A stretch of DNA of 53,642 nt from Jatrophihabitantaceae bacterium (GCA_036833255.1 DAITQD010000001.1:1-53642); one strand, 5' to 3'; counted from the stretch's first letter, positions 2,921-33,274 are shown. Notes: generated by a model from the letters alone, not told the origin. Numbers and translations: made by a program.

Positions 2921-2967
2921 GCTGGCAGTGTGGGGGTCAGGGGTTCGAGTCCCCTCAGCTCCACCCA
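2921..2967 (+). repeat. att-like direct repeat DR1: 3' end of a tRNA-like/tmRNA-like gene (T-arm plus acceptor strand)
   Basis: The sequence gctggcagtgtgggggtcAGGGGTTCGAGTCCCCTCAGCTCCAccca contains a T-stem/loop (AGGGG-TTCGAGT-CCCCT) followed by CAGCTCC-A-CC. That is the acceptor 3' strand typical of tmRNA or tRNA-Ala (G3:U70 compatible). No matching 5' half lies upstream, so this is a fragment. It is repeated at 33228-33274 with 46/47 identity. Confidence 0.7.
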
Positions 2968-3020
2968 TGAATGCCTTATAGTATAAGGTTTCCGCGTCTA
3001 GTGGGACTGTCTGGGCGGCC

Positions 3021-3245
3021 TCAATGTCACCGAAATGTCAGTACCCACAAACTGTGGGAAGCAACTTGGTTCAAGTTTCGACGAGACCCCAACTGTGGTG
3101 GCCGCTGCGGCCCTGGCGCGCCGCGCCTGTGAGGTCTCGGCGTTTGCGGCACTGGCGCTGTCCCGTTAGATACCGGCTGTTCTCGGTTTCGGACGGGCTG
3201 ACGACGTGCCGATTCGTGCGAGCCGAGGTTATTGAGACCCACCGG
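3021..3245 (+). repeat. Copy 1 of an uncharacterised ~225-265-bp repeat unit (MITE-like or structured-RNA-like)
   Basis: It shares tcaatgtca..gaaatgtcagt..ctgtgggaagca.cttggttcaagt.tcgacgagac..ctcggcgtttgcggcactgg..gccgaggt.attgag.ccca with 53269-53494 and, in part, with 7509-7669. Weaker similarity may extend left to about 2983 (ATAAGG...). Confidence 0.6.
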
Positions 3246-3322
3246 CTCGCTCTGCGCGATCTGGGTGCAGCGGAATGGCGGATGGTGTGATGGCAGGTTG
3301 CCGGAGCCTTGTCTGATGGCCT

Positions 3323-3350
3323 CTATACCTGGTATATATACCGGGTATAG
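3323..3350. promoter_or_regulatory. AT-rich 28-bp near-perfect palindrome, candidate PadR operator/promoter
   Basis: CTATACCTGGTATATATACCGGGTATAG has one mismatched pair. It ends 25 nt upstream of the padR-like start in otherwise very GC-rich DNA. Confidence 0.5.
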
Positions 3351-3374
3351 CGAGGATCGAGGGGTTGAGGGCGA

Positions 3375-3962
3375 ATGAGTGTCCGGCACGCGTTGTTGGC
3401 GTTGTTGAGCGAGGGGCCGAAGTACGGGCTGCAGTTGCGCGACGAGTTCGAGCAGCGCACTGGTGAGGTGTGGCCGCTCAATGTCGGTCAGGTGTATACG
3501 ACGCTGCAGCGTCTCGAACGGGACGGTCTGATCGAGTCGGACGGTGAGGGGGAGGTCGGACCGCAGAAGTCGTTCCGCCTCACCGCTGACGGCGGTACCG
3601 AGTTGGACGCGTGGCTTCGCACCCCGCCGGATCTCAGCGCCCCGCCCCGCGACGAGCTGGTCATCAAAGTGTTGGTCGCGAGCCGGGTTCCGGGAGTGGA
3701 CGTCCACGATGTGATCCAGGCGCACCGGCGCCACATTGTCGAACTGATGCAGGAATGGACCCGGATCAAGCGCGACGCCGGTCCGGACGAGGTGAGCCTG
3801 GCTTTGGTTGTTGACGCCGAGCTGTTCCGGCTCGACTCGGTGATCCGCTGGCTGGATGCCGCCGACGCCCGGCTGCGCCGTACTGGTACCGCGCAGACCC
3901 CCGTCGCCCCATCGCGATTGCCTGAACCGGCCCCGACGCGCCAGGCAGAGGTACGCCGATGA
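3375..3962 (+). CDS. PadR-family transcriptional regulator
   Basis: MSVRHALLALLSEGPKYGLQLRDEFEQRTGEVWPLNVGQVYTTLQRLERDGLIES is a canonical PadR winged helix. An ATGA overlap joins it to the next gene. Confidence 0.9.
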   Translation: MSVRHALLALLSEGPKYGLQLRDEFEQRTGEVWPLNVGQVYTTLQRLERDGLIESDGEGEVGPQKSFRLTADGGTELDAWLRTPPDLSAPPRDELVIKVLVASRVPGVDVHDVIQAHRRHIVELMQEWTRIKRDAGPDEVSLALVVDAELFRLDSVIRWLDAADARLRRTGTAQTPVAPSRLPEPAPTRQAEVRR

Positions 3963-4681
3963 GCGCGCTACAACTGACCAACGTGAGCAAGGTGTACGGC
4001 AGCGGCCCCACCGAGGTCCGTGCGCTGCTTGAGGTGGACCTGACGGTCGAGCCCGGTGAACTGGTTGCGGTGATGGGACCCAGCGGCTCCGGTAAGAGCA
4101 CGCTGCTCACGATCGCCGGCAGCCTGGAGGAGCCCTCCGACGGGGAGGTGACCGTCGGCGGTGTACCGCTGTCGCGGCTGTCGCGCAGTGAGCGGGCCGC
4201 GCTGCGGCGCCGCGCGATCGGCTACGTCTTCCAGGACTTCAATCTGCTCGCCGGGTTGACCGCCGCGGAGAACGTGTCGCTGCCCCTGGAGCTCGACGGC
4301 ACGACGGGCAAGGCGGCCCGGATCGCCGCGCTGGCCACCCTGGACCGGCTCGGGCTGGTCGAGCGGGCCGACAGGTTCCCCGACGAACTGTCCGGCGGCG
4401 AGCGGCAGCGGGTGGCGATTGCCCGCGCGGTGGTCGGCGAGCGGCACCTGCTGCTGGCAGACGAACCGTCCGGCGCCCTGGACTCGGTCAACGGTGAGGC
4501 GGTGATGCGCCTGGTCCGCGAGACCTGTGAGGGCGGCGTGGCAGGTGTCGTGGTCACCCACGACGCGCAGCTGGCGTCGTGGGCTGATCGGGTGGTGTTC
4601 CTGCGTGACGGGCGGGTCGTCGATCAAACGGCCCGAGCAGAGGGGCCGGAGTCGCTGCTGGATGCGGATCGGGCGCGATGA
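3959..4681 (+). CDS. ABC transporter ATP-binding protein (MacB/LolD-like)
   Basis: Walker A GPSGSGKST, signature LSGGERQRVAIARA and Walker B LLLADEPSGALD are all present. Confidence 0.95.
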   Translation: MSALQLTNVSKVYGSGPTEVRALLEVDLTVEPGELVAVMGPSGSGKSTLLTIAGSLEEPSDGEVTVGGVPLSRLSRSERAALRRRAIGYVFQDFNLLAGLTAAENVSLPLELDGTTGKAARIAALATLDRLGLVERADRFPDELSGGERQRVAIARAVVGERHLLLADEPSGALDSVNGEAVMRLVRETCEGGVAGVVVTHDAQLASWADRVVFLRDGRVVDQTARAEGPESLLDADRAR

Positions 4682-31808: not shown

Positions 31809-31942
31809 CCTGTGGGGCTCAACAACTTCGGCCCGCTGTTCTTGCCGGGTTCGGCGAGTCTCGAGCAATCGATTTGTAGTCGTGCTCGATGTCGCATGAT
31901 GGTCGTGTGGCGCAGCCTGTGGGGCTCAAAATCCTTGGCCCG
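31809..31942 (-). repeat. Two partial, inverted copies of the repeat-unit right terminus
   Basis: CCTGTGGGGCTCAACAACTTCGGCCCG (31809-31835) and CCTGTGGGGCTCAAAATCCTTGGCCCG (31916-31942) are reverse complements of the ...GGGCCGAGGTTTTTGAGCCCCACAGG termini at 7669 and 53494. Confidence 0.55.
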
Positions 31943-32061
31943 GCGTATCTGGTGGGTTCGGGCAGCTGGAGCCGAATCAGATGACCGCAGTCCGGTTCGG
32001 CGTGGCTGCTTGCCGTGGTTGGACACCGTCGATCTATAACAATCGTGTTATAGTGGTGCTG

Positions 32062-32392
32062 ATGTGGACGGTCCTCTATCTGCCCGAAGCCGAGATCGAA
32101 CGTGGCCCGGCTTCCGGCCGTCGAGAAGGCCGCACTCATCAACGCTGATCGCAAGCTGCAAGCTTTCGGCCCCCAGCTGCCGTACCCGCACTCGAGTGCA
32201 GTCAAGGGCGCGGACCGGCTCCGCGAGCTTCGACCGCGCGGTGGGCGCTCGCCGTGGCGGGGGCTGTACCGCCAGATCGGCGACGTGTTTGTGGTGGCGG
32301 CCATCGCACCGGAGGCGCAGGTGGATGGCCGGAAGTTTGAGGCGGCGTGCCGAGCAGCGGAGCGCCGGTTGTCACAGATCGAGGAGGCATGA
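32062..32392 (+). pseudogene. HigB/Gp49-like RelE-superfamily toxin, apparent +1 frameshift near 32100 (or an N-terminally shortened 96-aa CDS from GTG 32102)
   Basis: ATG at 32062 gives MWTVLYLPEAEIERG, then junk and a stop at 32146. Frame +1 continues ...LPAVEKAALINADRKLQAFGPQLPYPHSSAVKGADRLRELRPRGGRSPWRGLYRQIGDVFVVAAIAPEA, which is the Gp49-like toxin pattern. Confidence 0.6.
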
Positions 32393-32394
32393 CG

Positions 32395-32712
32395 ATGGCG
32401 AAGCTTTCAGACCTGAAGTCCTCGGCCCAGATTGCCGCGGATGAGATGCGTGATCCGGACGTGCTTGCCGAGTTGGAGCGCACCTCGGTGGCCGAGCAGG
32501 TCGCGCTGCTGCTCACGTCCTACCGTGTCGAGCACGATGTTACGCAGACCGGCCTCGCGGAGCTGCTCGGGATGCAGCAGCCTGCGATCGCCCGGTTGGA
32601 GGCAGGCTCACACGAACCGTCGTTGGCGACCCTCGCCCGCCTGTCGAGCGCGCTGGGTATCAGTCTGGACGTTCACATCGAGTCCGATTCGATGGTTCTG
32701 CGGATCCCCTGA
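32395..32712 (+). CDS. HigA-like XRE-family HTH antitoxin
   Basis: ...YRVEHDVTQTGLAELLGMQQPAIARLEAGSHEPSLATLARLSSALGISL is an XRE-type HTH. GAGGAGG lies 7 nt upstream. An alternative ATG at 32389 overlaps the toxin stop. Confidence 0.8.
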   Translation: MAKLSDLKSSAQIAADEMRDPDVLAELERTSVAEQVALLLTSYRVEHDVTQTGLAELLGMQQPAIARLEAGSHEPSLATLARLSSALGISLDVHIESDSMVLRIP

Positions 32713-32743
32713 TCCACTCTTCGCGCGAAGAGTGGATCAGGGG
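32706..32743. terminator. Perfect 38-nt palindrome (19-bp stem) overlapping the antitoxin stop
   Basis: CCCCTGATCCACTCTTCGC|GCGAAGAGTGGATCAGGGG. There is no U-tract, so it could be a terminator-like hairpin or a protein binding site. Confidence 0.45.
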
Positions 32744-33227
32744 GCGCGGCGCCGATGGCGGGCGATTTGGCTTGGAAGTGGACGCGCGCCTGGCCTGGGG
32801 GCGTGAACTCTCCCGACGATGAATCGAGACTCAGTGTGTGAGTGAGGGCCGCAGACTGACATCTGAGATTTGGAAGACGCCGGGGTTGACTTGACCGTGG
32901 AGCCAGTCGATTGTGCGGACGTATTGCGGGCGGGTCCGTGTCATCTGGCCGGTGTCAGCAGGGTGATTGGCTGGTACGTCACCGCGATGGCACTACCTGG
33001 ACAAGTCAGAGCCCTCAGCTAAGGCGCGGCAGGTGAGAACATACGCGACCAGCTCTGATCAAGCGTCTGCTCGGCATGATCACCGATCAAGATCATGTCA
33101 TCCATCTGTCACTCAGTACCCGACGGCATGGCAGGTCACGTGGCGACACGGAGCAGCATGAAACCCAATGATTGCAGGGATGTCCTGAGGCAGCACGATC
33201 CAGCATCAACTTTGACTGATCACCCGC

Positions 33228-33274
33228 GCTGGCAGTGTGGGGGTCAGGGGTTCGAGTCCCCTCAGTTCCACCCA
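33228..33274 (+). repeat. att-like direct repeat DR2 (second copy of the tRNA/tmRNA-like 3' end)
   Basis: 46/47 identical to 2921-2967 (C to T in the acceptor strand, CAGTTCC), in the same orientation, 30,307 bp away. Confidence 0.7.

Follow-up and report, generated by a model that had tools for sequence, protein, structure and literature searches.

Here we describe a 53,642-nt metagenomic stretch assigned to a Jatrophihabitantaceae bacterium (GCA_036833255.1, DAITQD010000001.1:1-53642; hereafter the window, meaning the whole of that stretch), in which a complete gene cluster for an extracellular contractile injection system (eCIS) lies between two direct repeats derived from a tRNA-Ala(GGC) gene. 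We consider this arrangement to be, more likely than not, the product of tandem accretion at that tRNA gene, with the 30.3-kb segment between the repeats (segment B, 2968-33223) representing a decayed, integrase-less island of the cis-mobilizable type that carries the eCIS, and with a separate, integrase-bearing island (island A) adjoining it on the left. An initial annotation had suggested a genomic island or a tandem array of islands at one attachment (att) site; the array is supported by a related contig with an empty site for island A (L131, below) and by the att copies that bound segment B.

The 47-nt repeat reported in that annotation at 2921-2967 and 33228-33274 (46/47 identical) was borne out and extends slightly, to 51 nt (2917-2967 versus 33224-33274, 49/51 identical). 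Its 26-nt core, with up to 3 mismatches allowed, occurs exactly twice in the window and 0.00 times in 100 shuffles, and the T-arm and acceptor strand that had been read in each copy are correct. Given that ARAGORN and Rfam at its gathering score found neither a complete tRNA nor a complete transfer-messenger RNA (tmRNA) gene anywhere in the window, both copies are fragments. At 100% identity, positions 2922-2966 match the final 45 nt of tRNA-Ala(GGC) genes in Geodermatophilaceae, Actinoplanes, Jatrophihabitantaceae and others, a portion that runs from anticodon loop to acceptor end. A 33-nt core, scanned over one genome per species, matched at least 119 loci, nearly all of them actinobacterial, and ARAGORN identified the full-length loci that match this core as tRNA-Ala(ggc). 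Upstream of the T-arm the fragment reads as variable loop, anticodon-stem strand and a loop, CTGGCAG, with the anticodon GGC. The matching genes finish in ...CTCCACC plus a variable base and do not encode CCA, which accounts for the CCACCCA seen at first reading. Copy 2 equals the tRNA 3′ end at 44/45 positions and lies on the same strand as copy 1 and the tRNA of L131. The first tRNA base is the same in both copies, and fragments in ~10 other genomes begin at exactly this base of the anticodon loop; the anticodon-loop 'A' subsite is common for tRNA-targeting integrases, with 2083/3919 Islander islands using it (PMC4383910). Judged by these matches, the repeats are displaced 3′ pieces, 45 nt long, of a tRNA-Ala(GGC) gene. 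Alignment of the 47-mer with tRNA and tmRNA gene 3′ ends, as the annotation had proposed, shows that its 45-nt tRNA-derived part equals the tRNA-Ala(GGC) end in related genomes and in L131. The repeat had been described as the end of 'tmRNA or tRNA-Ala': the tRNA-Ala half of this stands, specifically as GGC, and the tmRNA half falls, with an Rfam match below threshold. Displaced tRNA-Ala fragments can also be stacked with almost nothing in between, as in an uncultured actinobacterial genome (L054, 1145-1534) where a full tRNA-Ala is followed by 3 partial copies spaced 95-125 nt apart, and L098 has a similar pair.

We recovered related short contigs of the same natural population by exact-protein look-ups. 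One of these, L131, carries in order an SCO1-like gene, a DsbA/MauE-like gene, HU, an intact tRNA-Ala(GGC) at 2300-2373 and then the left end of segment B, with window 2915-4367 (trailer, PadR, ABC) following directly after the tRNA at 96.9% identity and without an integrase. Because the tRNA is here joined to segment B with no integrase between them, the displaced fragment seen as copy 1 belongs to island A as its attR, and L131 provides the empty site of that island. HU and DsbA genes also lie upstream of tRNA-Ala(GGC) in Jatrophihabitantaceae genomes, and this shared upstream context marks the L131 locus as the native tRNA locus. From the identity of HU (85-91%) and of the integrase (75%), we infer that the host is probably a Jatrophihabitans-like actinobacterium. 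The DNA downstream of the tRNA differs in every relative examined. In L132, the left junction at copy 1 is of yet another, third kind, which shows that another element uses the tRNA-Ala site in the same population, and the same tRNA-Ala fragment lies beside another integrase in L154, a contig predicted to be viral. tRNA-Ala(GGC) is a busy integration hot spot.

The tyrosine integrase that had been placed about 200 bp to the left of the first copy starts 193 nt from it by Pfam, and the AbiE genes noted at the left border, likewise confirmed by Pfam, lie left of the integrase and outside the bounded segment. The intact tRNA of L131 and the recurrence of the integrase with its fragment in other contexts mark the integrase as the end gene of a separate island A and not as an out-of-place integrase of the 30-kb segment. 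In L149 and in Jatrophihabitans cynanchi (L150), whose integrases are 84% and 75% identical, the same order is kept: integrase, ~50 nt, TGATTTGACCCCGNGACCC, ~115 nt, GTTGAAC...CACCCCG and the tRNA-Ala fragment; both contigs cover only the integrase end of island-A-type elements. A 21-nt motif, TGATTTGACCCCGCGACCCTC, precedes the integrase start by 43-57 nt in the window as well as in L001, L149 and L150. L001 is 98.8% identical to window 1-2992 and reaches 1.6 kb further left, and it has the identical integrase and fragment before unrelated DNA consisting of a terminator hairpin followed by DsrE-like and methyltransferase genes. No integrase was found within 2.5 kb of ~10 partial tRNA-Ala fragments elsewhere, so that the integrase-beside-attR layout is specific to the island A family; L162, with an integrase 74% identical, contains no tRNA piece. 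The integrase has 2358 homologues at E<1e-30. A search for phage relatives returned no close one, the best phage match being 35% identical and one distant IMG/VR match 26%, and a phage origin of the integrase was rejected on these values. An exact-protein look-up with the AbiEi protein of the window gave no record. For annotation, the locus cautions against assigning an integrase that adjoins a repeat automatically to the DNA enclosed by the repeats.

Both junctions of segment B vary in the population, and its two ends share sequence motifs. The bipartite motif ATGTCA-N6-TGTCA has 3 occurrences in the 53.6-kb window against 0.00 expected, one lying 57 nt to the right of copy 1 and another 129 nt to the left of copy 2, each on the plus strand; arm-type recombinase sites belonging to a single att system, one per arm, would look like such a pair. 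A further motif, GACACGG(A/G), is common to the arms left of copies 1 and 2, ~80-110 nt left of the core, a post hoc observation, and the immediate left junction of copy 2 (CTTTGACTGATCACCCGCG) resembles the junction of the island A family. The arm of ~140 nt left of copy 2 is kept as diverged alleles (about 77-82%) in L123 and L158. L123 is 81.7% identical to the window left of copy 2 and 99.6-99.9% identical from copy 2 rightwards, the step in identity falling exactly at copy 2, directly past which the right flank of the window begins AGAGGCGCCCGTAATAG. In L158 (JGI 3300086718), the arm stands next to an unrelated AbiEi/AbiEii pair instead of HigBA, and the same right flank is present at 98%. 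The identity step in L123 and the different cargo in L158 thus indicate that copy 2 is a genuine boundary between a conserved backbone and exchangeable element DNA. No integrase relic or small excisionase was found near copy 2, and viral contigs contained no circular or alternative form of the right end of segment B. An IS256-type transposase with an 8-bp duplication, CGATCACC, interrupts the arm in L158, 10 nt left of the fragment.

We then turn to what segment B carries. As initially annotated, an eCIS lies inside the bounded segment; Pfam shows the cluster to be complete (PF04984/PF17482, PF06841, PF05954, PF04717, PF04965 (weak), PF14065, PF00004 and PF13699), uniting sheath, tube, baseplate/spike, Afp16-type cap and AAA+ ATPase but no capsid genes. 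The toxin-antitoxin (TA) modules reported at the right border were also recovered by Pfam, HigBA just inside the end, as a HigB-like Gp49 toxin with a helix-turn-helix (HTH) antitoxin, and Phd/RelE just outside it, as Phd with ParE (Table 1). A truncated DUF1345-like open reading frame (ORF) is likewise part of segment B. In agreement with the reported lack of an integrase between the repeats, none was found by Pfam on all sizeable ORFs or by tblastn of the integrase at E<=50. Nor did segment B show an excisionase or any genes for replication, transfer or phage heads. By Pfam, it contained no remnants of genes for relaxase, coupling protein, FtsK/Tra or replication, and, between the att sites, no capsid, portal, terminase, lysis or replication genes.

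Together, these findings can be ordered into a model of accretion. The array would read intact tRNA (beyond the left contig end), island A, fragment 1, segment B, fragment 2, Phd/ParE and galactoside-utilisation genes, with the repeats as scars of tyrosine-integrase insertion into the tRNA gene. Segment B would be an older integrated element whose own recombinase was lost or never present, and island A would be the latest arrival, entering the regenerated tRNA with segment B already downstream; copy 1 would thereby be a hybrid junction of one element's arm and the next element's arm. Segment B presumably entered as one unit with the eCIS aboard. It would be mobile only if an integrase of matching specificity, for example that of island A, recombines its two att sites, and the island A integrase can presumably act on it. 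A bolder version of the model, in which segment B is a still-functional, integrase-less hitch-hiker with a complete eCIS that island-A-family integrases excise in trans, alone or together with island A, seems to us rather doubtful; if true, accretion at tRNA-Ala(GGC) would be a concrete vehicle spreading contractile injection systems among soil Actinobacteria.

GC content beside the repeats is indeed lower, at 0.61-0.65 around both copies versus 0.70-0.77 in the eCIS. The comparison of GC and codon usage that the annotation had proposed did not set the eCIS apart as foreign: its GC content at third codon positions (GC3) is 0.92, lower GC3 (0.77-0.84) is limited to the border genes (island A, PadR/ABC and the TA genes), and the overall GC difference arises from codon positions 1 and 2. 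We rejected composition as a sign of eCIS foreignness on the ground that GC3 is equal in the eCIS and in the flanking glycosidase genes. The closest eCIS relatives are L151 (sheath 83% identical) and the Micromonospora genome L152 (81%), with further relatives in Arthrobacter and Nostocoides (sheath ~76-79%) and a sheath identity of ~63% to a Streptomyces protein. L151 and L152 are syntenic with the window within the eCIS cluster but have other left flanks. The occurrence of relatives in diverse genera, together with the different left flanks of these two, is consistent with lateral spread of the eCIS but does not tie such spread to this att system. The eCIS may plausibly have arrived with the island. 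Within the eCIS operon, a 60-nt intergenic sequence occurs twice (14534-14593 and 21466-21525, 90% identical), each copy starting within a few bases of a stop codon and ending in ATGAGC; it was not detectable in L151 or L152 and may be a regulatory or translational-coupling element.

The window also contains a dispersed repeat of ~170-265 bp, 75-81% identical among its copies at 2985-3250, 7505-7670 and 53232-53500. It ends in a 25-nt motif, GGCCGAGGTTTTTGAGCCCCACAGG, of which there are 4 copies within 2 mismatches against 0 expected, and inverted copies of this motif lie at 31809-31833 and 31916-31940. The DUF1345-like ORF stops at the 31809 motif copy, the dispersed-repeat copy at 53232 cuts short an ABC ATPase gene right behind the Walker A motif, and related metagenome contigs all break at the dispersed repeat. 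The first ~130 nt of the repeat, which overlap the left arm of segment B, also follow the tRNA-Ala fragment in L149. A known RNA or strongly folded element was considered for the repeat and rejected (no Rfam match; fold z-score -1.8).

Several observations weigh against the accretion model. No contig was found in which the tRNA is joined directly to the right flank of copy 2. Two exact-pattern scans of JGI metagenome contigs (tRNA plus copy 2 flank; junction alone) left the empty-B junction unmatched and the occupied junction likewise, and because the occupied junction, as the positive control, was also absent from the collection, this search for an empty site is uninformative; contigs with Phd/ParE show segment B, a diverged B-type arm or rearrangements mediated by insertion sequences (IS). 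Segment B holds no integrase remnant at the tblastn threshold of E<=50, and it looks mosaic, with the dispersed repeat bracketing PadR/ABC and recurring inverted near the truncated ORF at 31809. The GC3 of the eCIS is the same as that of the glycosidase genes of the right flank (GH35, alpha-galactosidase), and in L151 and L152 the eCIS has no tRNA-Ala fragment within 10 kb to its left. A simple array of island A and segment B also leaves two features unexplained, namely that the 21-nt motif of the integrase family recurs at 20/21 to the right of copy 2, and that a near-complete copy of the left arm of segment B, trailer half included, lies at 53232-53500. The motif at 33329-33349 may be what is left of a third element or one of its arms, and either feature could mean that the array continues or once continued rightward, with Phd/ParE as the first genes of that third element. 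Some of these same points would fit a different history, in which copy 2 is the lone relic of an old, largely deleted insertion, and the DNA up to it, eCIS included, was gathered piecemeal by homologous recombination or by repeat- and IS-mediated events and was never one mobile unit. We regard this as the most serious alternative, if still an unlikely one. The mosaic structure (dispersed repeat at 2985-3250 and 7505-7670, inverted motifs at 31809 and 31916, truncated DUF1345-like ORF) and the shared GC3 would be expected from it, as would eCIS relatives in other contexts without tRNA-Ala fragments, the lack of an empty site found for segment B, and rearrangements of a kind not involving att sites (a break at 29843 in L122; IS in L161, L126 and L128; the IS256-type element in L158). 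It is harder to reconcile with the rare bipartite motif near both ends of segment B in the same orientation and with a right arm that behaves as a conserved module, also ending other cargo; moreover, any stretch that separates a tRNA gene from a direct, displaced piece of it must at minimum have been opened by site-specific insertion (PMC4383910).

The other readings are far less probable than either of these. Phage-tail-like sheath, tube and baseplate proteins are encoded in segment B, and the predicted viral contig L154 has the same tRNA-Ala fragment beside an integrase, as might be the case if segment B were a degraded prophage at tRNA-Ala with the 'eCIS' as its surviving tail module; we think this very unlikely, given the eCIS-specific genes (Pvc16_N cap, AAA ATPase, eCIS_core-domain protein, BTAD regulator), the lack of capsid, portal, terminase, lysis and replication genes by Pfam, nearest relatives that are syntenic eCIS loci without phage genes, and an integrase with no close phage relative (identity <=35%). 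The layout might also be an assembly chimera of contigs joined at the repeated 51-mer, since the window is an entire metagenome contig and several related contigs stop at or close to the repeats. Copy 1 with both flanks is seen again in 3 independent contigs (L130, L135, L136) and copy 2 with both flanks in 7 (L121, L122, L124, L125, L156, L159, L160), from independent assemblies of different samples. Recurrence of both junctions shows that the layout is not chimeric, and the chance of such an artefact is very slight indeed. The probability that the repeats are instead 3′ ends of tmRNA (ssrA), with an array at the tmRNA gene, is close to nil. tmRNA is the best sub-threshold Rfam match (27.5 and 16.2 bits, E 8e-10 and 5e-5, in 171-nt stretches), but these scores fall well under the gathering score of 47 and the alignment covers just the tRNA-like 3′ domain. 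The anticodon loop of the fragment reads GGC, ARAGORN calls every full-length gene with the sequence tRNA-Ala(ggc), that of L131 at the same locus included, and the tmRNA genes of relatives sit elsewhere (L072, L137); the sub-threshold score, the anticodon loop and the ARAGORN calls led us to reject a tmRNA integration site.

Tandem accretion at tRNA-Ala(GGC) can be compared with known systems. Under the Islander principle, island ends are marked by a regenerated tDNA and a displaced 3′ fragment (PMC4383910). As in Islander islands (Williams 2002; PMC4383910), the 3′ fragments of the window are in direct orientation and start at the anticodon loop, copy 2 providing the displaced fragment at the other end; the target is a hot spot, occupied differently in each relative examined, and island A has its own tyrosine integrase and an empty site in L131. 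In contrast, segment B has no internal integrase and would fail the Islander integrase filter, tandem arrays being accepted only with one integrase per member (PMC4383910), and the intact tRNA is not on the window contig but is present in L131, which is 97% identical to the left end of segment B. A closer parallel is the three-step scheme of integration, decay to a cis-mobilizable element (CIME) and accretion of a newcomer, for which ICESt1/CIME in Streptococcus thermophilus and the TR1/TR2 pathogenicity island of Streptomyces scabies are precedents (PMC5704250). Like CIMEs (PMC5704250), segment B keeps att sites at both ends without integration or transfer genes, has as its tandem neighbour an element with an integrase for the same site, and shows at the internal junction of the window, copy 1, a hybrid of two elements' arms. 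Its neighbour has the same site specificity, with the island A integrase beside the same 45-nt core and island A inserted at the tRNA according to L131. In structure, segment B is thus what a CIME should be, flanked by att sites, devoid of mobility genes and adjoined by an element with a same-site integrase. It differs in having no transfer-gene relics, so that descent from a conjugative or mobilizable element is not evident, in a partner, island A, that is seen in part and is not known to be conjugative, and in a cargo of eCIS genes rather than resistance or toxin-biosynthesis genes.

The vcr islands of Dehalococcoides are reported to be stacked at the tmRNA gene, with direct repeats of its 3′ end between them, and to have adaptive cargo (PMC3146451); they resemble the array described here in placing several islands at one small-RNA gene and differ in target, which here is tRNA-Ala(GGC) and not ssrA, and in phylum and cargo. 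The eCIS itself matches actinobacterial clusters such as the Streptomyces CIS/SLP (PMC10020575, PMC8505568) in having BTAD regulator, sheath, tube, Pvc16-type cap, AAA ATPase, spike and baseplate in the same order; unlike these, the cluster in the window is enclosed by two att sites of tRNA origin and has TA modules next to it. eCIS clusters are patchy and thought to be laterally spread, and their vehicles are rarely pinned down; a review of eCIS that treats horizontal transfer makes no mention of integrases, tRNA or genomic islands (PMC10598620). In the window, a complete actinobacterial eCIS lies between two att sites of an active hot spot, beside an integrase island whose insertion is polymorphic in the same population. 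The architecture is that of an ordinary, textbook genomic island and the cargo is uncommon. The value of the locus is modest, chiefly as a testable vehicle for eCIS mobility, the candidate route being recombination of copy 1 with copy 2 by the neighbour's integrase.

Table 1. Features of island A, segment B and the right flank (window coordinates)
Feature	Position	Strand	Remarks
AbiEii toxin gene, 5′ part	1-419	-	Island A; cut by the contig end; L001 gene 3570-4334 matches PF08843 AbiEii
AbiEi antitoxin/regulator	577-1167	-	Island A; PF13338 AbiEi_4, E=4e-13; limits from L001
Tyrosine integrase	1393-2724	-	End gene of island A, transcribed away from copy 1; PF00589 and PF14659 (SAM-like)
21-nt motif TGATTTGACCCCGCGACCCTC	2781-2801	+	Spacer between integrase and att site; kept in the island A integrase family
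Copy 1	2917-2967	+	Displaced 3′ fragment of tRNA-Ala(GGC); tRNA-derived part 2922-2966; attR of island A and left att site of segment B
Left arm of segment B	2968-3100	+	Begins ATGAATGCCTTATAG; trailer hairpin CCTTATAGTATAAGG, then ATGTCA-N6-TGTCA at 3024-3040
PadR regulator	3375-3962	+	Segment B cargo; Pfam; gene calls in L129, L130
ABC ATPase	3959-4681	+	Segment B cargo; Pfam; gene calls in L129, L130
FtsX/MacB-type permease	4678-7218	+	Segment B cargo; Pfam; gene calls in L129, L130
eCIS cluster, complete	8001-31489		Segment B cargo; Pfam
eCIS_core-domain protein	8001-10223	-	Pfam
BTAD regulator	10310-11215		Pfam
Sheath	11446-13344		Pfam
Tube	13347-13850		Pfam
Pvc16_N cap	15369-16559		Pfam
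AAA ATPase	16556-18460		Pfam
gpD/gpV spike	19278-21127		Pfam
gp25-like protein	21520-21903		Pfam
Large baseplate proteins	21900-28914		Pfam
Fibre-like protein	28916-31489		Pfam
HigB-like toxin (Gp49)	32102-32392	+	Segment B cargo; Pfam; gene calls in L121
HTH antitoxin	32395-32712	+	Segment B cargo; Pfam; gene calls in L121
Right arm of segment B	33087-33223	+	ATGTCA-N6-TGTCA at 33095-33111; GACACGGA at 33145-33152; junction CTTTGACTGATCACCCGCG
Copy 2	33224-33274	+	Displaced 3′ fragment of tRNA-Ala(GGC); one C-to-T change at 33266; right att site of segment B
Second copy (20/21) of the integrase-family 21-nt motif	33329-33349	+	Outside segment B, 54 nt right of copy 2
Phd antitoxin	33525-33794	+	Right flank; Pfam
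ParE toxin	33791-34057	+	Right flank; Pfam

Contigs of the same population differ from the window in several further respects. Some strains (L126, L128, L161) have an IS with a DDE_Tnp_1_4 transposase at ~33430, beside a 50-nt hairpin (33420-33475), and in L161 a secretory-lipase gene lies left of the IS in place of copy 2 and segment B. Given this position of the IS, Phd/ParE is not beside the tRNA fragment in strains of the L161 type. L122 is 99.9% identical to the window from 29843 rightwards; left of that point, the C-terminal part of the last eCIS (fibre-like) gene is fused in frame to an ornithine-cyclodeaminase-like N-terminus, which an amidase gene adjoins. L122 is either a deletion or rearrangement variant without most of the eCIS or an assembly chimera. 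On its right side, compared with window 33087-34517, L158 has a GH35 gene cut to 45 codons, followed by RES, PIN and Phd toxin-antitoxin genes. In the window itself, the region at 34363-44402 encodes 3 adjacent secreted glycosidases, two GH35 beta-galactosidases and one alpha-galactosidase, which share NPCBM and NPCBM-associated C-terminal modules and are ~66-80% identical over long stretches. The first GH35 gene of L121 is 99.5% identical to that of the window and the second 83%, which makes the second GH35 gene unusually variable in this population.

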